In this document: piece by piece, positions 14,059 to 49,317 of the stretch
Position numbering within the stretch: the stretch's first letter is position 1
How the letters are laid out: each line of letters begins with the position of its first letter
Notes under the pieces: model-generated
The model's input: the letters and a program-made list of their open reading frames with translations, nothing else
Databases searched by the model: none
What the model was told of the DNA's origin: nothing
Program-made: the position numbers and the translations under genes
Assembly (NCBI GenBank): GCA_003707115.1
Contig: PPNB01000007.1
Coordinates: 186,001-250,000, forward strand
Source of the DNA: Tortispora ganteri
Lineage: Eukaryota
DNA length: 64,000 bases
Direction: 5' to 3'

Positions 14059-17000
14059 ATGACTCCCTCAATTGCCAGTTTAGTGCCGGAATCCTCAACC
14101 GTGTCGACAGTTTACCAGGACATAGCTAAAGGGGAGCTCCCTCCTCTGCCAAAGGAAATCGACGCATTCAGCTACACCTCTGTACTCACTTTCTATCTCA
14201 ATGGTGTGAAACAAGTTGTAAGAAATCCAAATCCTGAAGGAACCCTACTTGATTATTTGCGCCTGAATGCTCATCTCACAGGTACCAAACTGGGCTGTTC
14301 GGAAGGCGGATGCGGTGCCTGTACGATCGTCGTGGCCTCTATTGATCCCGACACAAACTCGGTATACTATGCGGCCATAAACTCATGTATTGCCCCCTTG
14401 ATTTTTGTGGAAGGAAAGCATTTAATAACAGTTGAAGGGATCGGAAGTGTCAAGAATCCTCATCCTGCACAGGAGCGCATTGCCTACTTTCACGGCTCGC
14501 AATGCGGCTTCTGTACTCCAGGCATAGTCATGTCCCTCTACGCCTTGCTTAGGAACACTGACGGCTCCCCCTCCAAAGACCAGATAGTGGAAGCTTGGGA
14601 TGGTAATCTCTGCCGCTGCACCGGATACAAGCCAATTATTGACGCCGCTAATACCTTTGTATCGGGATGTGCTCGTGGCAAGGACTGCTGCAAGAACAAG
14701 TCAAATGGACGGCGCTGTGGAGACGAATCAAATGGTACCTCTATTAATTCAGACAGAGAAGAGATGGAAGTTGACATGAATGAGCTTTTGTCGCCCAATG
14801 GAATGCCTTTAAAGCCTGCATACACTGCTGATCAAGAACTCATATTCCCTCCATCTCTTCGCAAGTACGAACTGCCTCCTATTTATTTTGGTAATTTTCG
14901 CAAGGTCTGGTTTCGCCCTACCTCCAAAGCTCAATTGCTTCAGATTAAGAGCGCTTACCCCTCCGCAAAGATTGTAGGAGGTTCTTCAGAAATTCAGATC
15001 GAAATAAAAATGAAGGCAGCTAATTACAACGTTTCTGTGTTTGCTAATGACATACCTGAACTTAGAAGATTTTCCTACGTTCCTGGTGAAGGACTGCACT
15101 TCGGCTCAAACATCAGCCTCTCTAAACTAGAAGAAGTCTTGAAAGCTTTAATTGAAGGATCAGACGAGATTCCCGTGCCTAAACTTGAGCCCTACCAGAC
15201 TGGGTTTTTCAAAGCAATGCTTCACCAGTTGAAGTATTTTGCAGGACGTCAAATCCGTAATGCTGCTACTCCTGCAGGTAACATTGCTACAGCTTCGCCT
15301 ATTTCTGATTTAAATCCTGTCCTTGTGTCAGCTCACGCTGTTCTAACTGTTGAACAGGAGGGCAAAGAGCCAGTAAAGCTTTCTATGGCTGACTTCTTTA
15401 TCAGCTACCGCAATACTAAACTACCCACAGAGGGAATAATTACAAGTATTTTTGTGCCAGAGACAACTAAATTTCAGCACGTCGCCGCTTATAAACAGGC
15501 TAAGCGCAAAGATGATGATATTGCTATAGTGACTTCGTCGTTTTTTATGGAATTGGATGAAAGTAACGTCATCACTCAAGCACGCTTGGTCTACGGCGGT
15601 ATGGCACCTATAACTATTGCCGCTAAAGAAGCTTCTTCTTTCTTGGTAGGTAAAAACTTGCTTGACATAGAAACTATTGAATCTACCTTTAGCTGTCTGG
15701 AAAGAGATTTCAATCTGCCCTACGGAGTTCCTGGTGGTATGGCTACTTATAGGCGTGGATTGGCTCTCAGCTTTTTCTACAGATTCTATAATCAGGTTAA
15801 ATCAGATCTCAATCTTGATTTTGATGCAGATGTGCTTACAGAAGTTACACGAGACCATGTGAAAGGAAAGCGCGATCTCGTGAATCCCTTTGAATCTCGT
15901 ATACTTGGTAAATCTAACCCTCATCTTTCTGCTTTGAAGCAGGTTACTGGAGAAGCAGTATATGTGGATGATATTCCTCCTCAGCATGGCGAGCTGTTTG
16001 GTGTACAAGTTCTTTCATCTAAAGCTCATGCTAGAATCATCTCGGTTGATTTCTCTGCTGCCCTTGAGGTTCCTGGTGTGGTAGACTACATTGACATAAA
16101 TGACCTTCCGAACCGTGAGGCCAATATGTGGGGCACTGTAAATGGCTATGAGCCTTTTTTTGCTGATAATGAAGTGTTTTATGCTGGTCAATGCATTGGT
16201 GTCGTTCTTGCAGAAACCGAATTAGCTGCAAACGAAGGTATGCGAGCCGTCAAAGTGGAATATGAAGATCTGCCTTTCATCACTACAATTGAGGAAGCTA
16301 TTGACGCCAACTCTTATTTTGATCATGTAAAGCCGCAAACTTATAAGGGAAATATTGAAGAGGGACTCAAGAAAGCTAAGTACGTTTTTGAAGGTACTCA
16401 TCGTATGGGTGCTCAAGAACACTTCTATCTTGAGACACAAGGAGCTTTAGCAGTTCCTGAACCTGAAGATGGTGAGCTTAAGATATATTCTTCTAGTCAG
16501 AACCCTACAGAGACCCAGCATTTTGTTGCCTCTGCTACTGGCGTTCCAGACTCGCGAATTGTATGTCGGGTTAAGAGACTTGGCGGAGGATTCGGTGGAA
16601 AAGAGTCTCGATGTGTGCAGTTAGCCGGTCTTGCATCAGTTGGAGCTGTAAAGACTAAGAGGGCTGTGAGAATGATGCTATCACGAGCCGAAGATATGCA
16701 GACCAGTGGGCAGCGTCATCCGTTCATGTTCAAGTGGAAGTGTGGGTTTGATGAGAACTACAAGATGACTGCATATGAGGTGGATCTTTATTGCAATGCT
16801 GGCTGGACGATGGATCTTACTAGAGGTGTCATTGAGCGGGCCGTTTTGCATGCTGATAATGTATACTTCTGTCCAAATGTGACTGTTCGTGGCTGGATTT
16901 GCAAGACAAATACTGCTTCGAATACCGCGTTTAGAGGATTTGGTGGACCTCAAGGTATGTTTGCATGTGAAAGCATGTTTTACGAAGTGGCTGATCGTAT

Positions 17001-18213
17001 GAACATTGACCTTGATGAACTTCGTCGCATAAACTATTATGATAAGTCTAAGAACCAAAGTACGTCGTTCAAACAAGCAATTACTGAGGATTTTAGTGTT
17101 CCCGATATTGTTGAACAGCTACATGTGGAGTGCGATTATGAAGCCCGCAAAGCACAAGTTTCTGCATTTAACAAAGAACATAAGTGGATTAAGCGTGGTA
17201 TTACTACTACACCTACGAAATTCGGTATTTCATTCGGTGCTCTATTTCTCAATCAAGCCGGTGCATTAGTGCATATTTATCATGATGGATCCATTTTACT
17301 AACACATGGTGGTACAGAAATGGGTCAAGGATTGCACACTAAGATGGCAATGATATGTGCTCATGAGCTTCAAGTCCCTCTTGATAATGTATTTATCTCT
17401 GAGACGGCAACTAACACTGTTCCTAACACATCACCTTCTGCTGCATCAGCATCTAGTGATCTTAACGGAGGTGCAGTAAAGAACGCATGCGATCAATTGA
17501 ATGAGCGTTTAAAACCGTACAGAGAAAAGTTTGGACCTAATGCCACAATGCGAGAGATGGCCCATGCTGCCTACATGGATCGTGTGAATTTATCAGCTAA
17601 TGGATTTTATAAGACTCCTGATATTGGATTTGTATTTGGCGAGGAGAATCCCAAGCCTGCTTTCTATTACTTTACTCAAGGAGCTTGTGTTTCCGAGGTG
17701 GAAGTGAACATGCTTACGGGAGATTTTTCAGTGATTCGAACAGACATTAAAATGGACATTGGTCGGCCAATTAACCAGGCTATTGACTATGGACAAATAG
17801 AAGGTGCTTACGTTCAAGGACAGGGCCTTTTTACTACTGAACAGTCCTTATGGTTTTCACACAATGGGCAAATATTCACTAGAGGCCCTGGTGCGTATAA
17901 GATACCTGGGTTCAGAGATATTCCGCAGGAATTCAACGTCACTATGCTAAAAGACCGGCCGTTTAACCATCTCAACACTATTCACCGCAGCAAAGGTATT
18001 GGAGAGCCTCCTCTTTTCCTTGGATCTACTGTTTTATTTGCAATTCGGGAAGCATTGAAGGCCGGCAGGAAACAATTCGGACAGGAAGATGTTCTTGTAC
18101 TGAACGCACCTTGTACCGCTGAACGTATACGTCTTGCTGTTGGCGATGACATCATCAAGCGAGCCGTTGTTACCCCGAAGGAGGGCGAAAAACCTTTCCT
18201 GATTGAAGCTTAA
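14059..18213 (+). CDS. XDH: Xanthine dehydrogenase/oxidoreductase (2Fe-2S, FAD, molybdopterin)
   Basis: GTKLGCSEGGCGACT, QCGFCTPG, NLCRCTGY, GGGFGGKE, AFRGFGGPQG, SKGIGEPPLFL. First ATG at 14059. Confidence 0.96.
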   Translation: MTPSIASLVPESSTVSTVYQDIAKGELPPLPKEIDAFSYTSVLTFYLNGVKQVVRNPNPEGTLLDYLRLNAHLTGTKLGCSEGGCGACTIVVASIDPDTNSVYYAAINSCIAPLIFVEGKHLITVEGIGSVKNPHPAQERIAYFHGSQCGFCTPGIVMSLYALLRNTDGSPSKDQIVEAWDGNLCRCTGYKPIIDAANTFVSGCARGKDCCKNKSNGRRCGDESNGTSINSDREEMEVDMNELLSPNGMPLKPAYTADQELIFPPSLRKYELPPIYFGNFRKVWFRPTSKAQLLQIKSAYPSAKIVGGSSEIQIEIKMKAANYNVSVFANDIPELRRFSYVPGEGLHFGSNISLSKLEEVLKALIEGSDEIPVPKLEPYQTGFFKAMLHQLKYFAGRQIRNAATPAGNIATASPISDLNPVLVSAHAVLTVEQEGKEPVKLSMADFFISYRNTKLPTEGIITSIFVPETTKFQHVAAYKQAKRKDDDIAIVTSSFFMELDESNVITQARLVYGGMAPITIAAKEASSFLVGKNLLDIETIESTFSCLERDFNLPYGVPGGMATYRRGLALSFFYRFYNQVKSDLNLDFDADVLTEVTRDHVKGKRDLVNPFESRILGKSNPHLSALKQVTGEAVYVDDIPPQHGELFGVQVLSSKAHARIISVDFSAALEVPGVVDYIDINDLPNREANMWGTVNGYEPFFADNEVFYAGQCIGVVLAETELAANEGMRAVKVEYEDLPFITTIEEAIDANSYFDHVKPQTYKGNIEEGLKKAKYVFEGTHRMGAQEHFYLETQGALAVPEPEDGELKIYSSSQNPTETQHFVASATGVPDSRIVCRVKRLGGGFGGKESRCVQLAGLASVGAVKTKRAVRMMLSRAEDMQTSGQRHPFMFKWKCGFDENYKMTAYEVDLYCNAGWTMDLTRGVIERAVLHADNVYFCPNVTVRGWICKTNTASNTAFRGFGGPQGMFACESMFYEVADRMNIDLDELRRINYYDKSKNQSTSFKQAITEDFSVPDIVEQLHVECDYEARKAQVSAFNKEHKWIKRGITTTPTKFGISFGALFLNQAGALVHIYHDGSILLTHGGTEMGQGLHTKMAMICAHELQVPLDNVFISETATNTVPNTSPSAASASSDLNGGAVKNACDQLNERLKPYREKFGPNATMREMAHAAYMDRVNLSANGFYKTPDIGFVFGEENPKPAFYYFTQGACVSEVEVNMLTGDFSVIRTDIKMDIGRPINQAIDYGQIEGAYVQGQGLFTTEQSLWFSHNGQIFTRGPGAYKIPGFRDIPQEFNVTMLKDRPFNHLNTIHRSKGIGEPPLFLGSTVLFAIREALKAGRKQFGQEDVLVLNAPCTAERIRLAVGDDIIKRAVVTPKEGEKPFLIEA

Positions 18214-37458: not shown

Positions 37459-40446
37459 ATGCCTGAGTCGATCAGATCCACTCTAGTCTCTTCCGATGTA
37501 TCCTCTAATACTACCGATCCTGAATATGATGTTGATACCGCGGAAATATACATTTCCATATCTGGTATGACTTGTTCTGCGTGCACATCATCGGTTACAG
37601 CTGCTCTGAAAGCTATCTCCGGGGTGTATAATGTTCAGGTGGCCCTTGTTACAGAGCAAGCTAGAGTAGTTTACTCCCCGCTACAAGTTTCGCCAGAAAA
37701 GTTGATTCAAGCAGTTGAAGACTGTGGATTTGATGCGTCTATAGATTCTTTGCAGTCTGACCGTTCAGAAGCGGAATCTCTTAGAAACGAAAATGCAGAA
37801 ATCGCGGTATACGGAATGACCTGCTCTGCTTGCACCAACTCTGTCACCGCAGCTTTATTAAGTTTGGATGGCGTAAACTCAGCGCAAGTGTCTCTAGCCA
37901 CCGAAACTGCCAATGTGTCTTATGATACATCGAAAGTTGGCATACGTGATGTTATTGAAGCTATACAAAACTGTGGCTTTGACGCCGTGCCTGCACATTC
38001 TCTTACAAGACGAAATCAAGCACTTGCCTTGCTTCGAGTCAAGGACGTTATTTTTTGGCGCAAGCAAGTAATTATTTGCTTGCTATTTGCTATTCCTGTA
38101 TTTGCAATTTGCGTTGTTATTGGTAAATACTTTCAATCATTGCAGGTATACATTCAATTTCAGATTATGCGAGGTTTGTTTTTTGATCAATTGCTAGCTC
38201 TTGTTTTGACCATTCCCTTACAATTTGGCATTGGACTAAGATTTTTAAAATCAGCTTATACCTCCATCAAGCATGGCTATGCCTCTATGGATGTTCTTGT
38301 TACCCTCTCTACTTCTATGTCGTTTTGGTTTTCGGTATTCAGCATGCTGTATTCTATTATCTCCAAGTCCTCGAAACGGCCTACTGTTATGTTTGAAATG
38401 CCCACAATGATCTTATTATTTGTCGTTATCGGCAAGTATTTGGAAAATAGAGCAAAGGGACAAATGTCGCAGGCACTTTCAGAACTCATGCAACTTACCC
38501 CGCCTGTAGCGACGATTTACTCCTCTAAATCTGATATAGCTGCTGCACAAGCTCGTGCTGCCGAACTTATAACTGAAGGGAAAAAATTTGCTCCAGTTTC
38601 CATTATAACTGAAAGAGAAGTGAACTCTGATATAGTACAAAGAGGCGATATAGTAATATTACGGCCAGGCATGCGTGCACCTGCTGACGGAATTGTTATA
38701 GCAGGATCCTCTTCAACGGACGAATCACATCTAACTGGAGAGAGTATTCCTGTGTCCAAAGAATTGGGTAGCCCTATCATATCTGGTTCCATTAATCTGG
38801 ATGGCCGTATTGACTTTGTTGTTACAAGAGGCGGCACAAAGACAAGACTATCTCAAATTGTCGACCTAATTCGTACTGCGCAATCAAAATCTACACCTAT
38901 TCAAAGATTCGGTGATAAGGTGTCAGCAGTTTTTGTTTATACAATATTGTCTCTCGCCCTTTTCACGTTTCTTTTTTGGCTTACAGTGTGTTATTTAGAC
39001 ATTGGACTCCCCAAAGTATTCGCTGATACGAGAGCCACTTCTGGGCGGGAAGGTGAATTGTTTTTATGCTTCCAGTTGGCGGTTACTGTGATTACCGTTG
39101 CTTGCCCTTGTGCTATAGGTTTAGCTACGCCGACTGCTGTGATGGTGGGCACAGGTGTAGGTGCGCAACATGGGATACTTTTTAAGGGCGGAGACTCCCT
39201 CGAAATATCATCGCAGGCAACTCATGTGATATTTGATAAAACAGGCACTCTGACCTATGGACAATTAACTGTATCTAGATGTGAGCTTGATAAGAACTGG
39301 TCAAACTTGTCTAATTTGTGGTATGCCCTTGTTATTGCCACGGAGGAGGGTTCAAAGCATCCTATGGCAATTTCTATTGTCAAAGAGCTTGAAAAGAAAC
39401 TCCACAAATACTCTCTATCTGGTCATGTTTCTATTGAAAGCTTCACATCTTACACTGGGAACGGAGTGAGTGCCGTTGCTAAATATGACGAACAAATTTT
39501 TGATATGAAGATTGGAAGCTCTACTTTTCTGTTATCTCTTGGGATAAAAATAGACTCCGATCTACTTTCTCGTGAATCTTCAACTTCAGATTCAATAGTT
39601 TTTGTCAGTATAAACGGCAACTTGTCTGGAACAATATACTTGATTGATCGGGTTAGACATGAGGCTGCGGATGCAGTTCGTCTGCTAATGAATGCGGGCA
39701 TAACTGTTGCAATTGTAAGCGGTGATTCAGAGAAATCTGTAGAGACTGTTGCTAAAACTGTTGGAATTCCTGAGAACTGCACATTCTCCAGAATCTCTCC
39801 AGAAGGTAAACTTTCTATTATTCGTGATATACAATCTGGCAGTATACTTCGAACATCCCATTATGAACAGAAATATCTGAGAAAACTCATCTGGAAAACA
39901 TTTTTTAAGTCCAGAAGACCAGTGGTGATATTTGTGGGGGATGGGATAAATGACTCACCGGCATTAGCTGCTGCTGACCTCGGAATGGCAATAGCATCAG
40001 GGACTGAAATTGCAATTGAGGCAGCAGATTGTGTGCTCACCAAAGGAAGTGGAACTGACCAGCAATCCGACACTCAAAATGATGTTTTATTAGACGTCTA
40101 CTCGGCGATAGATTTAAGCGCCGCCATTCTCAGGAGGATTAAATACAATTATATTTGGGCCACCATATATAATTTAATTATGATCCCATTTGCAATGGGC
40201 GCATTTTTACCGCTTGGAATTGTGCTCACTCCTATTTTTGGCTCCGCTGCGATGGCTTTGTCTTCTGTCTCAGTTATAATGGGTTCATTGCTACTCAAGA
40301 ACTGGCATCCTTCTAATAGGAAAATCGAAAGACATATTTTCCCAAGGTTCCATTTATCCTGGCCATTGGCCTTCAAGTTTAGGAAACCTTCCAATGACAA
40401 TATTCCACTCATTGAATATACTCCAGTATCGCGCGATGATGAATGA
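37459..40446 (+). CDS. CCC2: P1B-type copper-transporting ATPase
   Basis: Two HMA domains (GMTCSAC), TGES, CPC, DKTGT, GDGINDSP, YN and MALSS transmembrane motifs. Confidence 0.95.
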   Translation: MPESIRSTLVSSDVSSNTTDPEYDVDTAEIYISISGMTCSACTSSVTAALKAISGVYNVQVALVTEQARVVYSPLQVSPEKLIQAVEDCGFDASIDSLQSDRSEAESLRNENAEIAVYGMTCSACTNSVTAALLSLDGVNSAQVSLATETANVSYDTSKVGIRDVIEAIQNCGFDAVPAHSLTRRNQALALLRVKDVIFWRKQVIICLLFAIPVFAICVVIGKYFQSLQVYIQFQIMRGLFFDQLLALVLTIPLQFGIGLRFLKSAYTSIKHGYASMDVLVTLSTSMSFWFSVFSMLYSIISKSSKRPTVMFEMPTMILLFVVIGKYLENRAKGQMSQALSELMQLTPPVATIYSSKSDIAAAQARAAELITEGKKFAPVSIITEREVNSDIVQRGDIVILRPGMRAPADGIVIAGSSSTDESHLTGESIPVSKELGSPIISGSINLDGRIDFVVTRGGTKTRLSQIVDLIRTAQSKSTPIQRFGDKVSAVFVYTILSLALFTFLFWLTVCYLDIGLPKVFADTRATSGREGELFLCFQLAVTVITVACPCAIGLATPTAVMVGTGVGAQHGILFKGGDSLEISSQATHVIFDKTGTLTYGQLTVSRCELDKNWSNLSNLWYALVIATEEGSKHPMAISIVKELEKKLHKYSLSGHVSIESFTSYTGNGVSAVAKYDEQIFDMKIGSSTFLLSLGIKIDSDLLSRESSTSDSIVFVSINGNLSGTIYLIDRVRHEAADAVRLLMNAGITVAIVSGDSEKSVETVAKTVGIPENCTFSRISPEGKLSIIRDIQSGSILRTSHYEQKYLRKLIWKTFFKSRRPVVIFVGDGINDSPALAAADLGMAIASGTEIAIEAADCVLTKGSGTDQQSDTQNDVLLDVYSAIDLSAAILRRIKYNYIWATIYNLIMIPFAMGAFLPLGIVLTPIFGSAAMALSSVSVIMGSLLLKNWHPSNRKIERHIFPRFHLSWPLAFKFRKPSNDNIPLIEYTPVSRDDE

Positions 40447-42923
40447 CACGACGCACCTTATCGCCTTTTTACAACTATTTCTCTTCTCTTGAACATGACT
40501 CTTCTTACATGATTTAAACTCCTATATTACGTGTAATCTCTAGAAATTAAATTTGCAGCTCCTTGGGTACCATACTTTTGTATCTTTATAACGTTCTGAA
40601 AAATTTATAATGGGACTATAGGCATTTCATTTGGATAATTAGTACATAATTGTGAGATCTCTTTGTCGTGCCCATTAGATATCAAGAAGCTGGTGTCCCC
40701 GCATATAAATAATAATGCCGACATTTTAGACGCGATTCGAAACCAATCAGGGCACTATATTAGTGATATCAAGAGTATTTGTTTTGCTGAAGCTTGCGAA
40801 AACAATGATCCTGCTCATCTACCCAAACTGAGTAATAGTATAATTTTTCGATTAATTACCAATTGTCTTGCTAGAATACGTGCCCAGGCTCTGAAATGAA
40901 TAGTTTCAACATAGGATTAACTTAACACATTAGCCAGCAAGTCGTCTTTCTCCACCTTGTAGTATCCTCGCATACGCATCATTATAGCAATAACGATGTT
41001 GAAAGATTCAAGGGAGTATATACTGATATACTAGTCCGATAGAGAGATTGATCAAGCCAATTCGTGTGATAGAGTGGCTGATTCTAGGTGCAACATACCG
41101 TCACCGTTAGAGGGTCCGGTATCATTTAAATTTTAGAGCAAGTAAACATCTTGTCAACTCGGATTGGTTTTATCCGGAAAAGTAACCTAAGTGGTGATTA
41201 AGGAACAACATATCAGTCATAGATGAATATGTTGGGAAAGCATCCGACCAGCCGATAACGACTCAGCAAAATTACCACTTAAAGGTTCTTCTCAAAGCCT
41301 CGTTTGCTAGTACTAATCTACTCAGCCACCGGCAGACGACACTTCCAGTCGACCACACTCTGATATACCTATTGTATCATCCTTTGTCTCACCCAAATCA
41401 GTGAAAAGGTTCTGGGATACGTAAGTGACTGTCACAATGAACAGGCCCGGGCATAAAGAACTTGGAACGTTTCTATAATGCAAGGTAGCGGGCAGGGTAG
41501 CGCATTTTCAACCCAATTCAAAGCATTTATAGGCAAAAAGGTCTCTCTGCACTCCCATTGAAACAGATTACAAAGAGACATGTCACTAAAATCACGCTTC
41601 ATTTTGTTAGCAAATCATCGCATTGAACCCAGGAAGAAACGCAGATTTTCTTTCTTCTTCGTTTATTGATTATGTTCCTTGAGTACTATTATGATCTATC
41701 GATTTATGGTCAATGTACTAGTAAACAAGCAGTATTTTCAAAAGCACTAATAAGACATGATTCTACGCGATCCAATTCTATATTATATGTCAAAGTTGCA
41801 GCAGAGTAAGTGTATGTCGCGTCTAACTTTCGTTTAAGATTCAAACTATTAGGATGCTTAAAACTAATAGTTCTTTCGCCACGCACCTTAAGTGGCGTAC
41901 ACACAAATACTCAATAACATTTAATAAATCTGAAGGTTGTGTTTGCGCAATATTCTATTTAGTTCACCGCAATCTTTGCCACCTAGTTACCATTACGAAA
42001 AATACTAAGTTTGCCGATATAGGCAGTGTTTGGGACTTTCGCCTTGCTAGTTCAGAATATTTGCAAATCGTTGATTATAAGTACCTAAGTAGCGCACAAA
42101 AATATATATTTAATCGTGGATATACGGCCTCGCGGTCGCATTCGCGCAAGATTCTTACATCTTTACAGCAAACTTTGCCATTTCGTTATCTTTACGAAAG
42201 TTATTGAATTTACTAGCTTGTCTAACACTGCGACGTCGTAGTAGACTTTCTTAGTAAGATGCTAATTTCGATTCAATTTATGTGAATTTTCGACCAAAAG
42301 CATTGCCCATTATTCCAATATACTGTGCAGGCATGGCTTCCATCTCATCGTGGTAGAAAATCTTGCCCCTCAGCATTATTCAGTTCACATTAAGATGGGT
42401 TATTCAGTAATTTCTCTGAATACGAAGGCATCCTAGTATAGTAGCTAAATTCATTTGGATTTTATAAACTAATCTAAAGTATAAATAAGTCTAATGAAAC
42501 ATTGAAACATGCATAACACTAATTTCAGCATCAAATTCATATAAAAAAGTCATTCTAGTATGTTATATTGTAAACCTGAGGATTGACTACATTTCAATAA
42601 ACATTTCTACTAGCATTAAAGTTACTCTTATCCTAAAAATAACTCTAAGGTAATGAATGCGTAGTTTATACATAACTCATGGAAATATCTACACATAGCA
42701 ACTTCAACCGGTTTTCTTTTGAAGCTAGAGGTTAACCACACTTGATTCATAAAAGAAATAGCAAACTAAAATTACGCAAGCGTTTTGAACATGCTACAAG
42801 GGCCCTTCCACCTTATATGTTTGATGCTTTCCAGCTCAGCAGTTCAACCAAACTGCGGAATGCATATATAGTACACACATCAAATTGCTATTTTTCTGCG
42901 ACTATTCCAGCTGAAATGAATTA

Positions 42924-42988
42924 CCACATTAGTCTAATTTGAATATATTTTCCACATTGGTCTAATTTGAACATATCTTCCACATCGG
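42924..42988 (+). repeat. 28-bp tandem repeat, about 2.3 copies
   Basis: CCACATTAGTCTAATTTGAATATATTTT / CCACATTGGTCTAATTTGAACATATCTT / CCACATCGG; the two full units are 25/28 identical. Confidence 0.85.
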
Positions 42989-45797
42989 AACTATTGTCCG
43001 TAAAACGTATAACAACAAATTTCCAAAAGCACGATTATTTTAACAATTCTTCGCAGCTAATAGTTTTCTATCGCTGAAATCAATAAACAGGAAAAGTTCT
43101 TTGTTAGAGAAATAAATATCAATGTCTTCAAAAGCGAACATGCTTTTGTCTTTTTCATTTTGTAACTTCTAATCGATACTTAGCATTAATTTATATCACT
43201 ACGCGCCACACAATTACCCAAATTCTAATCCAACGAAAATATCAATACATATAATATATGACAAATACTACATACACACTTTTAGTAGATATTCTTCCCT
43301 TGCTACTCTCTATAAGTTATAAGCTACTGAACAAGTAAATACGGTTATTTCTGGAATTTTACGCAATAATTGGCATTATTGATATTCCTGCTGTTTATAA
43401 CATTCAACCATAACATAATATTTTCTCCACTTATCATCTTGTCAACCGAGCCTACCATTACCTTTATGACTATAGATCACAATATTTAAGTATCGATCCA
43501 ATCGAGGTTTTATTAACCATACCTGTCTCGTCCTAAAATACATAGCACCCGAGCAAAAAAATATATCAATGGCGCTAATGATTATATAGAGGGATAATTA
43601 AATTCAAAATATATATGCGTCTTCATTAATAAAGAAACTTAAGACCAGTTGCCCACATTGGGTCTGAAAGAAACTTTTATTTCAAAAAGAGCAGATTTTT
43701 TGTTCAAAACGTGGAGGCTAATAATAGCTAGTAAACGTTAAATGCAGTAACAATGTGGCACTGTTGTTGTTGGAATTAACCTAGTGTGGCGCTTTACTTT
43801 CAAGCGGATATAGATGCTTAATCCTGTTTGATTCCCAGATTGGAAGTAGAGATTGAGATACCATTGTTTAGTTGGCTTTCATCACAAAATGATAAAATAG
43901 GATTTGCTCAGATGGTCACTTATGTTATTTTACTCGGTGTTACGCGATACCATTCTCTGTCAAGCGTATTACCTGGCATTTCGTTGCCCGTATAGCGCTT
44001 CATGCGTGGAATAGATGACACTAGCCGCTATAAACTCCTGCTATGAATACCACATAGTTGTCTTTTGGAGTATCTTACGCGCCACCGTGGCGTTCACAAG
44101 TCAATACAGAAACTCTATTCCAAATGGTTACGTTATTTAGTTCTTAATGATGCTCCACTGTGACTCAGTATGGATAGTCATATATAGTCCTATCACTCCT
44201 CCGGCAATTAAGAATTACAAAAAATTGAGAGCTTCATCAGATATCTTCTGTGCGCTCAGCGACTTAGTCTACTTTATTGAGCTGGATAGTAGCAATAGAA
44301 GCCCATTCTACAGCTATACACCTTCTTGCTGTTAGTTTCTGAGAAGCAAAATAAACCAATTGTCCTTTCAGACTTTTCCCTAGCGCAAGAGTGCGGAGAA
44401 CCAGATGGAGCTGTTAGAGAGGCGTCTTGATACTTTGTTTCTGGATCTGACCCGGAACAACCAAATGAACGCTTGGAAAAAAATCAAACTAAGCACTATA
44501 TAGAGAATCCGTCGAACTAAAATGCAATAAAGTCTCTGAAAGGTTACGGTGGCTGTGTATAGACCTTAGGCATTGTTAGAAGATATACATATCAAGCAGA
44601 AATCGAAAACGAACCAAGAGCAAGTTAAGTTTGAAACGGATAGTGCTGGTTATAGATCATAATGCTCAGAAGCAGATACATCTCCGTTGGTACTGATGAA
44701 TCATAGTCGTAATCAGTGGTTCGAGAAGTAATGAAAGAAAGTGCTCTTTCATTTCGTTGCAAAAACAAATAGGACTCCTACGCTGCTTCTACCCCCTCAG
44801 GTCAAACGATACTGCCTATTAAGAATTGTTGTAGTTCGCTGCTTGGAATAAAACACCGAGGAGTATATGGCTTTCGTTGCCACTTAAGGCCTCCCAAATA
44901 GAAAACTTTCTTTCGTCTAATTTGTTTCTTTATGTGCAGTAGCCTTACAGGGATAAGCTTACTGAGCAACTAAAATGTTGATACACCTCGCCATATTGAC
45001 AACATGCCAGAGAAAACGGCATCCAATATGATTCAAAGCTGTGTACCGAACTTTTTTCTTAGTAATAACACCATCAGTCGGCTTACTATATGTTTATTTT
45101 AAAGTATGGCTCATTGCCGTCTTAAAAGTATCATGCTGACGAAAACAGATTGTCATTATAAATAATACGCCACATACGCCATATTCTGCTTTGTTGTTAT
45201 GCTTTATTGAAATTGGTATAGGATCTCCTGAAGTGCTCAGTCTTTTTTTAAACACATTATTACTTAAGCTGTCCTTAATCATACAGGCTATTCATATAAG
45301 CTAGATGTGATCTCATAGCGAATGCAATGTTATAGTATATATGTCTCACTTTTCGTCCAAGCTCTAACCCCTCAGTTGGTGCGGTTTCATATACTTATTT
45401 CTTCTTGGCAAAAGCCGCAAACACAAACAAACAATGTTGGAAGACTATTTTCGTGCACTTTTATAATAGTCTCGAAATCGTTCTGCGTGTTTCTTTAGCA
45501 GTTTTGTTCGTAGTTCAACAATATATCTGATCGTTTACATGACTCCGCTTAGTATAGTAGTTGATCTGAAATAATAATCACTTTCTACTACGTCTTAACG
45601 TTGCTACAATGAAAACCCCCATGTGACTAGCACTGTAGTATTATAACTTAAGACTGTCATCGAGAATAAAATAGAATCCTCAGCCTGGAAATAATTAGAG
45701 GTGAGTATTCAGGAGCCGGATGATAACAGAATGTCCACATATGCACTAGAAGGGCCTTAATCTGATTCACGATTTAAAGGGTCACCTCTTCGACTTG

Positions 45798-45812
45798 TTT
45801 TTTTTTTTTTTT
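45798..45812 (+). repeat. Poly(dT) tract, T15
   Basis: Directly visible homopolymer inside the gene-free interval. Confidence 0.9.
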
Positions 45813-47657
45813 GTTTTTGAGGAGATTATCCAATAATTCCATTGGTATTGGGTCCTGAAATAATAATAGCCTAGTACATTCCAAATCAGAAACTTTGCAG
45901 GTTCGTATGTATATGGTTGAAGCTGCAATCACGCTAAATATGAATACGTTATCGGTTTCTTCTACAATATATTAATATGCATATTGCAAAACTTTAATGC
46001 AGCTCATTACCGACAACAATAAGAGGAAACCTATAAAGAAATGACAAAGGAATAATTCCGCCGCTGTGCAGTGTATATCCTATGTGATAAAGAAGAACTT
46101 CTTTCACTATACGGTTAATTTTACCGCTAGATCATAGCTCTTCGCTTGAGGTAATTTTTTCGTCGTCCACTGAATTAATAGATAGATGCAGACGGCTCAT
46201 ACTAACTAAATCTTCAATTCACTCATAAATCACTATGCACTCGTCTGTTTTCATATATCTTAAAAGCTTGAACGGGCTTGCCAGACGACAACTCTCAACA
46301 TTGGCTAATGGCTAAACGCAATAATTAAATTACTGCCTTAGCTTCAAATACTAAAATCATTTTCGGTAAACTTGAGTATATAAAACAAAAGGGCAAGAGA
46401 CATCTGCCTGTAAAAATTTCAACCACTCAGTATGTAGGGACAGTTGATTGTTACATGTAATTAGGGATAACTAACCCATGCGATAAGGTTTCAGTTGGGC
46501 AAAGTTCTCATTTCACTATGATGTTCAAAACATCGCCACACTTTGCCTTGAATTAAAAGCCAAATACGAGCATGCTATATAAGTCTTCTCTCAATGATCT
46601 AGAAAGTTGTACGATAAATTAATTATTCCTGATGTTTTCTCACATTGTTTAAGATTGAACATAAAAAACGCTATGGTAAAGTTTGCTAATGCTTTAAGCT
46701 AGTAATATATGGTATTTATGTGTGTGTATTTTTATCAAATGTGGCGTGTGGCGTCCACATAGTTTCCGGATACTATAATTAACGCCTATTCTTCTTCTTT
46801 ACATTTGTGGCGTCTTGCTTATTAAGTTTGTTCAATTAGCAAATGTAAGTCGAGTTTCGTAGCTTTATAAAAATATATGAGCATATACTCAATGTTTCGT
46901 TCAGCGTGCTATTATTAAACATACCATACAATCGAATGATCAAGCTCGCTTTTTCTGATGAACAATGTTTATAGTGCTGTTCTCCGCTTAAGTTTTTGTG
47001 GTATTTAAAGGTTCGAGATTGCATGAATGTTATTCATAGGCTGTTAATAATAATTTTTGGAGAAAATATGGCGTACATTTCTCCCTCTACCTTTTAAACA
47101 TGTTATATTTTTGAAATAGGAGTTGAGACTGCGCCACTTTTTCTATCATTATTACCCGATACAATCCCTTTGAATGGCATCAACGAAAGCATCGCTAAAA
47201 TTGCTGCAAATAGATGAGCTACAACTAATTCTCATTGTTACTGACTTTAGTGCAGTAATCTCTCATGCAGTTATGTAAACAGTCTATATATTCGCCTATC
47301 TTTAGCTACTGCAAAGATAATGCTGATGTGTATATGTAGACTACCTTTTGCGTGAATTGCTTGGGTGTAGCACTTGAATATCATCAGTCGTCACAATAGG
47401 ACTAGTAATCACTACTCAGACCTACCTTCCATGTAGCAAAGTTGGTTATAGATTTTCTCAACAAGCCACGATTGAGTATTAGGCCATTTTCCAATAGAAT
47501 CTAAGATACAAAGGCTAGATAATGAATGAATATCAAGGCACACCGAATATATTGGATATATACACATATACACTGTAGGCTTTAGATATTTGACAAGCTT
47601 AATAAAATTACTATACGCTTATAGCGTAATGTTCTTAATCATAAAACATAAACGACA

Positions 47658-48881
47658 TTAATCATATCTCCTTTGCAACAAAGGTAAATCAGCTGTCGGC
47701 ACTTGATGCAACTGTGATTTAAAGTAACCAAGATAAATAGTGATGACTGCTAAAGTAGTGGTGATAAGTATGACACAAACAATGAATATGCATGAGAGTA
47801 TTTTCCAAGCGGAGCTATCAAGTTGAGTGCTCAAATGAGTAGAAGCTAAAGCCATGGTTCCTAAGGGGAAAGTAAGAGCCCACCAGCTCAAAGAGAATGT
47901 TTTTGGATGCCCAGATGCTACAGCCATGGTAGACCAAAAGAGAAAGGAAAGGCCCAGTGCAAAGAATGTCATTCCCAAAGCATAGCCGAGATACTCAATA
48001 ACAATCTTCGATGCAATAGAGGCAGAATAATTTATGTTTAATCCCGGATAAACAGTATCTTGTAAGTATTGTGCTAGATTCAAAGCGTTAATCTGAATGG
48101 AAAAAGAACCTTGGCCGCATGGTCCACAAGCAATGAACATGGATAAACGGCTAGCCTTAGGTAACTTACCATGAAGATACCATCTAATTAAGAATGCGCC
48201 TATGATCATTAAAGCAGTTATCTGACCAGCGCCCCATGCTATAAAGCTCATTATGAGAACAGTGCCTCTCAAATGTTGAGGTATATGGGGAACGATTGCA
48301 CCACCCAGAGATGACACGACCACTAGGGCTACAGTAGGTAGCAAAAGGGCGGGTGTCAGCGTGTTCATCTTTCTTTCTGACCCAAAATGTATGTATATAT
48401 ACATTACCAGTAAAGCGGATACGTATGACAGAATGGTATCAATCCAATATATCGCGTAGGCAGCAACCCAAGCCCGTTCACCCCAGTTGATAACTATGAA
48501 GGTTGTGATAGTTGCCAATCCCATAGGTAAACAGCCCCAAAAAACAGCTCGTTCATTGTGGCATAATTTCAGTAGCCTTCTAGGGTATAGATACATCAAT
48601 AAAATTAAGGAGGCGGTTGATATAATAAATTCGAATGTGGCAACTCCCCAAAAGGCATATGATAAGCCATTTAACCACCTTGCTTGATATGGAAATACCC
48701 TCAATAAATTACCACATATGCCTACACCCATAACAGTTGAGAACCACGCAGGATCAAATCCTGCTATTCTCTGTGTGAAGTAGTTGAATTTCGGAACATT
48801 GATTGATGAGTCACAACTTGCTTTCTCTTTTTCTGCTGTGTTTTCTTCCACATCCACTCGAGGTCCGTTGACTGCGGTCAT
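47658..48881 (-). CDS. TDT/SLAC1-family transporter (Ssu1 sulfite efflux / Mae1-like)
   Basis: F.PAWFS.VMG.G, FWGCLPMGLATI, LLP.V, GPCGQG, WWALTFPLG, about 10 TM segments. First ATG at 48881. Confidence 0.88.
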   Translation of the reverse strand: MTAVNGPRVDVEENTAEKEKASCDSSINVPKFNYFTQRIAGFDPAWFSTVMGVGICGNLLRVFPYQARWLNGLSYAFWGVATFEFIISTASLILLMYLYPRRLLKLCHNERAVFWGCLPMGLATITTFIVINWGERAWVAAYAIYWIDTILSYVSALLVMYIYIHFGSERKMNTLTPALLLPTVALVVVSSLGGAIVPHIPQHLRGTVLIMSFIAWGAGQITALMIIGAFLIRWYLHGKLPKASRLSMFIACGPCGQGSFSIQINALNLAQYLQDTVYPGLNINYSASIASKIVIEYLGYALGMTFFALGLSFLFWSTMAVASGHPKTFSLSWWALTFPLGTMALASTHLSTQLDSSAWKILSCIFIVCVILITTTLAVITIYLGYFKSQLHQVPTADLPLLQRRYD

Positions 48882-49317
48882 TCTTTTATTTATATAAACT
48901 CTATTTCGTTTGCCGTCAGGACGAGCGTGAATTAACAAATAGCTATACCTTTTGCTCCGCACCAAATCAAGTATTGCGTGATCCTACCGACCCGGGTTAG
49001 CGTTAAGCGTGTTTATTTTTTTAGCTTCGTTGTGTTTTAGCGAAATATGTTGCTCCCCAACTTTCAGTTATATACTGTCACCTGAAACAAACTGCGGCTT
49101 ATAACTTTTTTTTGCTATGTTTCTTGATTGGGCATTTGGGTAGTATCATTTTAGCGCCGAACACGAAACAGTGTTTTCCTCAACACGGAAACGGATCGAG
49201 GTACGGGTCACCACTAGCACCCAGCGCACAAGCAGTTCGAACCCTTCAGTGAAGAAATTGACATTGCAATCCTTCCCCCTCACACTATTCAGGCAGGGGC
49301 GCTCTACATATTGCAAT

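Follow-up and report, generated by a model that had tools for sequence, protein, structure and literature searches.

GTGGCG sites in a gene-free gap

The window analyzed here is a 64,000-nucleotide stretch of DNA from the early-branching budding yeast Tortispora ganteri (PPNB01000007.1, positions 186,001 to 250,000, on the contig labeled C113), drawn from an assembly of 9.63 Mb in 1,044 contigs. It contains a gap of 7,211 bp between a gene for a heavy-metal P-type ATPase and a gene for an Ssu1-like transporter, the latter protein being 89% identical to T. caseinolytica CANCADRAFT_70231. Twelve copies of the hexamer GTGGCG are dispersed over both strands of this gap, and the same word is concentrated in two gaps on other contigs, all three being candidate regional centromeres. 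Since both flanking genes converge on the window gap, its GTGGCG sites lie outside the promoter of either gene. The locus has the following features.

37459..40446 (+), left flank: heavy-metal (Ccc2-like) P-type ATPase, 995 amino acids, HMA and E1-E2_ATPase domains, 3' end toward the gap
40447..47657 (.), candidate regional centromere: 7,211 bp, GC content 0.359, single copy, without a credible gene, flanks convergent
40581..41698 (+), relic of a Crypton/Ndc10-like gene (NDC10_II + GCR1_C family), decayed, no GTGGCG inside
41870..42070 (+), partial second copy (~200 bp) of the start of the shared element
41877..41882 (-), GTGGCG site 1
41892..41897 (+), GTGGCG site 2, retained at the homologous C2 position 106075 within a common 14-mer
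42076..43226 (+), shared decayed element, collinear with C2:106061-107250, 57% identity, nhmmer E down to 2.5e-30
42920..42985 (+), 28-bp tandem repeat, 2.2 copies, source of three CCACAT copies
43204..43209 (-), GTGGCG site 3, retained at the homologous C2 position 107229
43786..43791 (+), GTGGCG site 4
43938..44480 (-), second shared segment, inverted relative to C2:110465-110979, 54% identity
44080..44092 (.), GTGGCG sites 5 and 6, a palindrome, missing from the aligned C2 segment
45168..45173 (-), GTGGCG site 7
46534..46539 (-), GTGGCG site 8
46741..46753 (+), GTGGCG sites 9 and 10, a direct pair with a period of 7 bp
46807..46812 (+), GTGGCG site 11
47132..47137 (-), GTGGCG site 12
47658..48881 (-), right flank: Ssu1-like TDT/SLAC1 transporter, 407 amino acids, 3' end toward the gap

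The motif had been described in a sequence-only reading of the window, and the positions given there are exact: all 12 GTGGCG/CGCCAC copies, all 10 CCACAT/ATGTGG copies, the 10-bp repeat TACGCGCCAC at 43200 and 44076, the inverted pair GCGCCACAC at 43203/43784, and the palindrome CGCCACCGTGGCG at 44080. The claimed excess of GTGGCG is real, with 12 copies seen and 0.86 to 2.28 expected. Under each Markov order from 0 to 3, with the gap itself as the background, GTGGCG ranked first among 2,080 hexamers, and the Bonferroni-corrected p value was between ~3e-7 and 0.01, depending on the order. Unselected noncoding DNA of the same genome contained 12 copies in 65,257 bp, which gives an expectation of 1.3 for the gap (p 2e-8). 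Far from matching other intergenic DNA in density, the gap is ~9 times denser.

The second word of that reading, CCACAT/ATGTGG, failed correction for multiple testing (10 copies vs 2.6 to 2.8 expected; Bonferroni 0.8 to 1.5). Three of its copies form a single 28-bp tandem repeat and two more overlap GTGGCG sites; after repeat and overlap copies were collapsed, 6 remained vs 2.8 expected (p 0.065). The extended motif (A)TGTGGCG held for its GTGGCG core and for a preferred T at position -1, which is present in 20 of 33 noncoding sites, but the A in 'ATGTGGCG' varies: among 37 sites, position -2 carries A 14 times and G 12 times. Across the genome, TGTGGCG occurs 688 times and its reversed control 736 times. 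This absence of genome-wide enrichment indicates that the enrichment is local. The second-ranked hexamer of the window gap, TTTCGT/ACGAAA (16 vs 4.9 expected; Bonferroni 0.02 to 4.6 by model), has no such rank in the gaps on the other two contigs.

A gene or RNA hidden in the window gap was considered and rejected, because a tRNA search was empty, an Rfam search was empty at E<0.1, and a Pfam scan of the gap's 117-amino-acid open reading frame (ORF) and of read-through frames, covering all but the minus frames of 40447-42000, gave no match. A collapsed repeat or misassembly was likewise rejected on the basis of read depth, which is even (81 to 92 over 39000-49000) in two runs, from which the assembly was probably built and which are not independent. 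Contigs of the two runs differ from the assembly at 21 places, 20 of which fall inside the gap, at window 40526-47047 (Fisher p 0.014 against flanks that are mostly coding). This points to a heterozygous strain whose gap varies more than its flanks. None of the 21 differences hits a GTGGCG site, a number too small to test the sites. Elsewhere in the window, at 14059-18213, lies a gene for a xanthine dehydrogenase (molybdo-flavoprotein), an enzyme that to our knowledge is absent from most budding yeasts.

Two further clusters and their chromosomal positions

All 274 genome sites matching RTGTGGCG (a subset of the 688 TGTGGCG sites) were mapped, together with 100 of the 184 sites matching WAGTGGCGY. 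At least four RTGTGGCG sites within 6 kb were found at three places only, on contig C2 (8 sites), in the window (6), and on contig C823 (4). In simulation, 0.18 clusters of at least 4 in 6 kb arose by chance, and the probabilities of one cluster of at least 6 and of three clusters of at least 4 were 2e-4 and 1e-3, respectively. The places on C2 and C823 were located by the motif alone and then proved to be large ORF-free gaps.

C2:103176-109547, C2 gap: 6,372 bp, ORF-free, 15 GTGGCG, top hexamer
C823:112349-116608, C823 gap: 4,260 bp, ORF-free, 6 GTGGCG, top hexamer
G000:C823:110561-112348, 595-amino-acid Ser/Thr/Asn-rich ORF with 92-amino-acid repeats and no Pfam match, dividing the C823 gap

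GTGGCG ranks first among 2,080 hexamers in each of the three gaps, and it does so in the purely noncoding part of C823 as well (6 vs 0.76 expected). The motif is thus not absent from other centromere candidates, being top-ranked in gaps on two other contigs. Among ORF-free gaps in the 679 kb examined, the window gap is the largest, the C2 gap is second, and the C823 gap is fourth. The six noncoding C823 sites, like the window sites, lie between convergent genes. None of 35 other motif-pair stretches, formed by weaker pairs, is a low-GC gap enriched for the motif. An inverted motif pair (GTGGCGT-3 nt-ACGCCAC) was observed at G000:C657:64-80, just upstream of a gene at the contig start, and related sequence is present on two small contigs, C674 and C754. 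Open frames on the small contigs C675 and C699 resemble a Mutator-type transposase.

One flanking protein per gap was mapped to T. caseinolytica. The three proteins are 88 to 91% identical to their T. caseinolytica counterparts, and for the first two the next matches are at 33% and 47%. The orthologues, CANCADRAFT_70231, CANCADRAFT_962, and CANCADRAFT_15629, lie on three different sequences of 2,610,682, 3,117,240, and 3,113,199 bp, which sum to 8.84 Mb. The T. caseinolytica genome is 9.2 Mb (PMC5499181), leaving only ~0.36 Mb for any other three chromosomes. One cluster per chromosome-sized sequence is probably the pattern expected of centromeres. The suggestion that the window gap is a centromere candidate, made in the sequence-only reading, gains support from the recurrence in two more gaps, from these being the sole clusters genome-wide, and from flanks that map to different chromosome-sized sequences.

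Genes for an NHP10-like protein (INO80F + HMG), an RMD1-like protein (DUF155), and HAT1 are located at G000:C2:91299-102378, at most 12 kb from the C2 gap. Their Saccharomyces cerevisiae orthologues probably lie beside CEN4 and CEN16. The S. cerevisiae counterparts of a SAD1-like gene near the C823 cluster and of an SWD1-like gene 44 kb from the window gap are presumably CEN-proximal as well; counted over all the genes encountered, the excess is small. Metagenome contigs yielded no DNA of relatives, and exact look-ups were also empty.

Decayed elements, retention of the word, and candidate binding proteins

The Crypton/Ndc10-like relic of the window gap is closest to an intact gene on contig C1 (blastn, 69% over 328 bp, E 1e-24; tblastn, 46%, E 1e-9), one of four intact relatives of ~800 amino acids.

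G000:C1:493322-495757, intact Crypton/Ndc10-like gene
C712:467248-469650, intact Crypton/Ndc10-like gene
C823:91738-94134, intact Crypton/Ndc10-like gene
C823:106544-109000, intact Crypton/Ndc10-like gene

One of these directly flanks the C823 gap region, another is ~15 kb off, and the remaining two are away from the gaps. The C823:106544 gene keeps a stretch resembling the H-x-x-R signature of tyrosine recombinases, and the C823:91738 gene is without it. All four encode NDC10_II and GCR1_C, with a mutual identity of 22 to 29%. CryptonF elements are defined by a tyrosine-recombinase-like domain together with GCR1_C (PMC3212892). The four genes thus have the domains of CryptonF but are not near-identical copies, and they may be domesticated. 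Because no Crypton insertions were found in Saccharomycotina in PMC3212892, the decayed copy and the four intact genes are notable.

Decayed sequence of ~1.2 kb plus 0.5 kb is common to the window and C2 gaps and occurs nowhere else among the fetched loci. The shared element at 42076..43226 matched no Pfam family, and the window copy of the second shared segment matched no protein family. A short spurious ORF that starts at 41854 belongs to the partial-copy region. C2 also contains a 470-bp duplication, and the C823 ORF contains 276-bp repeats. Searches of the genome DNA with the gap or a shared segment returned self-matches only, an insensitive test, since known matches at 67 to 69% were missed. 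Kilobase-scale inverted repeats of the Komagataella or C. tropicalis type were sought, and none of the three gaps gave an inverted self-match at E<0.01. The scanned frames of the window gap gave no Pfam match to a retrotransposon domain, again in an insensitive test in which the known Crypton relic was also silent.

In the 16.6 kb of noncoding DNA of the three gaps, exact GTGGCG occurs 33 times vs 3.3 expected, whereas its 18 one-mismatch variants together occur 61 times vs 63.8 expected. Among the variants, only GTGGCA (14 vs 5.6) stands out, along with a weak rise in ATGGCG (10 vs 5.9). If an amplified repeat had decayed, mismatch variants should be in excess; they are not, which argues against repeat decay. 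Of the 9 site positions in the aligned repeat copies of C113 and C2, 4 have the word unbroken in either copy vs 0.36 expected (P 2e-4, conservatively 2.5e-3), and other hexamers of these copies are kept at 3 to 13%. The flanks of the sites are mostly unrelated, with a mean of 22/80 identities over 528 pairs, ~4 of which are in homologous context, and there is no consensus beyond about -3 to +7 around GTGGCG. The noncoding sites are divided 15 and 18 between the strands, their spacing is irregular, and the word forms no tandem arrays (19 close pairs vs 41 in the control). A telomere or satellite origin of GTGGCG was rejected for want of such arrays. Because the exact word is tenfold enriched, its mismatch variants are not, and 4 of 9 aligned positions are kept, selection on the hexamer is likely, with GTGGCG being kept and regained as binding sites.

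That a sequence-specific protein may coat the region, as the sequence-only reading proposed, is inferred from the statistics of the sites, and three candidate binders fit. The link to Met31/Met32 and Cbf1 proposed in that reading is not supported: the TGTGGCG core matches, but fuller Met32 sites and Cbf1 boxes are rare. The core of the Met32 matrix is CTGTGGCGCT, A-rich on the 5' side (PMC3737730). The Met31/Met32 site of S. cerevisiae (PMC3737730) and the gaps share TGTGGCG, with T at -1 as described above, whereas the gaps are without the C at -2, the 5' A-tract, and the pairing with a Cbf1 E-box, and two of the three are not promoters. The three gaps together contain CTGTGGC 3 times, AACTGTGG once, and CACGTG twice (0, 1, and 1 per gap). 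The CDEI motif RTCACRTG occurs 1, 0, and 0 times in the window, C2, and C823 gaps, the one copy being at window position 45620. The maximum AT content in any 80 bp is 0.775, 0.85, and 0.775, and TTCCGAA is found 0 times in the three gaps.

No Met31/32 orthologue was identified in atlas and profile searches, which gave generic zinc-finger proteins without orthology. The Cep3 profile gave a partial match, over 175 of 511 positions, in an 882-amino-acid generic Zn-cluster factor, and the Rpn4-type word GGTGGCRAA occurs twice in the three gaps. GTGGC was found in 0 of 3 promoters (two proteasome, one MET2-like) in what is a small test. Among the C2H2 loci whose helices were read, a protein of 477 amino acids encoded on contig C746 has two N-terminal fingers with the helices RPYDLQR and RKDSMNR. 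By the zinc-finger recognition code, RPYDLQR would read GCG and RKDSMNR would read G(T/C)G, together GTGGCG, and C2H2 proteins on C868 and at C557:620k presumably also fit GTG-GCG. We tentatively suggest, at somewhat less than even odds, that the binder is a C2H2 protein reading GTG-GCG with two fingers. A binder of another class, for instance one of the Crypton-like proteins through its GCR1_C domain, may be involved instead.

Probable centromere function and comparison with known systems

On the evidence of size, chromosomal spread, and motif content, the window gap is probably one of three centromeres, together with the C2 and C823 gaps. We put the probability of the fuller reading, in which these gaps are regional centromeres and a protein recruited by the dispersed sites marks the domain or stabilizes it, at roughly 0.55. 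Each centromere would consist of 4 to 7 kb of noncoding DNA, partly decayed transposon-like and duplicated sequence, carrying 6 to 15 GTGGCG in both orientations at irregular spacing. Selection would keep these sites, and gain them anew, because a sequence-specific protein binds them. Binding by a C2H2 protein could then mark or stabilize the CENP-A domain or the surrounding chromatin, as CENP-B boxes do. The setting would be a lineage without H3K9 heterochromatin: Clr4 and Swi6 are missing from all orders except Lipomycetales (PMC13017519, from which we take this over for Tortispora).

Several observations weigh against regional centromeres of this kind. The chromosome column for T. caseinolytica reads 6, unbracketed (PMC5499181), a single flank per gap was mapped, and chance alone would put three loci on three separate sequences with P ~0.2. 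As the motif itself led to C2 and C823, part of their motif enrichment is circular; the size, chromosomal spread, and shared sequence of these gaps are free of that circularity. The 679 kb examined is 7% of the genome and was mostly chosen by motif, so that large motif-free gaps may exist. One ORF-free stretch of 5.7 kb on C613 (size rank 3, GC content 0.456) is unenriched, GTGGCG ranking 223rd there. The contig end C613:1-14564, which has two repeat-rich adhesin-like ORFs and AGTGGG and CTCCGA as top hexamers, is possibly subtelomeric. The C2 gap, flanked by divergent genes, could be promoter DNA, 4 of the 10 C823 GTGGCG sites are inside the 595-amino-acid repeat ORF (3 of them from the repeat), and C823 has no detectable sequence in common with the other two gaps. 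Two of the four retained sites are at alignment ends, where they may have anchored the alignment and inflated retention. The GC content of the gaps (0.36 to 0.37) is barely below that of ordinary noncoding DNA (0.383), with ~0.42 for the whole window, and the GC skew is one-sided in each gap, with no clean switch of the origin type. Finally, three candidate binders fit, and none is singled out.

Alternatively, the gaps may be epigenetic regional centromeres in which GTGGCG is passive, as a relic of a transposon's terminal repeat or internal word or as a by-product of mutation bias. Transposon-like relics are indeed present (the Crypton-like remnant, the C2 duplication, and the repeats of the C823 ORF), and the shared 1.2-kb element ends with inward-facing GTGGCG, like short terminal inverted repeats. 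Copies at 54 to 64% identity that decay neutrally should leave more mismatch variants than intact words, however, and the variants stand at 61 vs 63.8. The short consensus, the scarcity of site pairs in homologous context, the lack of any site in the Crypton remnant, and the absence of tandem arrays also speak against passive copies, which makes this explanation unlikely. Chance, with a word chosen after looking and then used to locate C2 and C823, is scarcely credible given Bonferroni significance over all hexamers, the scan statistic, and the coincidence with large gaps. Chance is refuted for GTGGCG and is still adequate for ATGTGG.

Slightly less probable than passive copies is the idea that the gaps are long noncentromeric domains, whether regulatory, insulator, or replication origin, that bind an ordinary factor of the Met32, Rpn4, Crz1, or Stp type. 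A C2H2 core of the sequence TGTGGCG is known (PMC3737730), divergent genes flank the C2 gap, metal and sulfite transporters are beside two gaps, and GTGGCA is mildly raised too. Yet the C113 sites and the six noncoding C823 sites lie between convergent genes, full known sites are scarce (GGTGGCRAA 2, AACTGTGG 1, CTGTGGC 3), and GTGGC is missing from the three promoters of the small test. Centromeres also account better for decayed DNA common to two gaps and for a single cluster on each chromosome-sized sequence. A point-like centromere bound by Met31/32, Cbf1, and a CBF3-like complex is very improbable. The core and the single RTCACRTG fit it, as do the four Ndc10/Crypton-like genes, with one directly beside the C823 gap, and the partial Cep3 match. 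Set against it are the lack of CDEI in two of three gaps, an AT content of at most 78 to 85% per 80 bp, the lack of TTCCGAA, the restriction of the Cep3 match to about a third of the profile in a generic factor, and the origin of CBF3, which Haase et al. place in Saccharomycodales and Saccharomycetales (PMC13017519).

If a transcription-factor-type protein does specify a regional centromere in this yeast, that would be an independent route to sequence guidance outside the path from Ty5 to point centromeres. How budding yeasts kept centromere identity after the loss of H3K9 heterochromatin is an open question (PMC13017519). A further step is doubtful: a C2H2 protein might coat fast-turning-over GTGGCG sites, fix CENP-A placement, and replace the early-lost heterochromatin, and Crypton-type Ndc10 relatives might show how the ancestor of Ndc10 reached centromeres long before point centromeres. 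The analysis narrows the question to three exactly placed candidate loci, a single word of six bases, and a short list of binding proteins, and GTGGCG could serve to predict the centromeres of related genomes. Within the limited literature accessible to search, we found no published description of a centromere of Tortispora or its order, or of GTGGCG at yeast centromeres; the text consulted in PMC3141009 and PMC6692504 and the supplements of PMC13017519 (searched by term) contained nothing on these loci.

Blastobotrys adeninivorans and Yarrowia lipolytica, also early-branching yeasts, have short regional centromeres, with one gene-free, lower-GC region of ~6 kb and a short motif on each chromosome (PMC4022394), an arrangement that the gaps appear to share. 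Their motif is a 14- to 16-bp quasi-palindrome, present in one or two copies together with poly(A) of ~50 (PMC4022394), whereas the Tortispora gaps contain a hexamer 6 to 15 times. Matches to the TTCCNATTNNGGNA-type motif of these yeasts are at shuffle level in the three gaps, the longest A/T run is 15, and the GC dip is shallow. Ty5-cluster centromeres are similar in that transposon-derived DNA accumulates in the gap (PMC13017519); the recognizable relic here is instead a Crypton/Ndc10-like tyrosine-recombinase gene, with no retrotransposon domain in the scanned window-gap frames.

Motif-defined centromeres are known from S. quercuum (17 bp), W. anomalus (21-bp arrays), B. discipulorum (GTGGTTTT)n, and H. 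uvarum (CAM), and the centromere motifs and tandem arrays of Phaffomycetales span 17 to 200 bp (PMC12711049). In Phaffomycetales and Saccharomycodales the largest intergenic gap of each chromosome contains an enriched motif, some with GCG/CGC trimers (PMC12711049), an arrangement that the Tortispora gaps appear to share. Their motifs are longer, single or tandem, and confined to ~500 bp, and one is telomere related (PMC12711049), whereas the Tortispora word is 6 bp long, is dispersed on both strands over 4 to 5 kb without tandem arrays, and belongs to a far more distant order. A further comparison is with the CENP-B box of mammals and the CENP-B-like proteins of fission yeast (mentioned in PMC3212892). 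If the gaps are centromeres with recruiting sites, the likeness would be many dispersed sites for one DNA-binding protein over a regional centromere. The Tortispora gaps, however, lack a satellite monomer, their site is six bases long, and the proposed binder is a C2H2 protein rather than a derivative of a pogo transposase, so that membership in the CENP-B system is not claimed. A hexamer dispersed on both strands over several kilobases is a layout absent from the motif-bearing centromeres compared here and, if confirmed, would be a new variant of the regional centromere.

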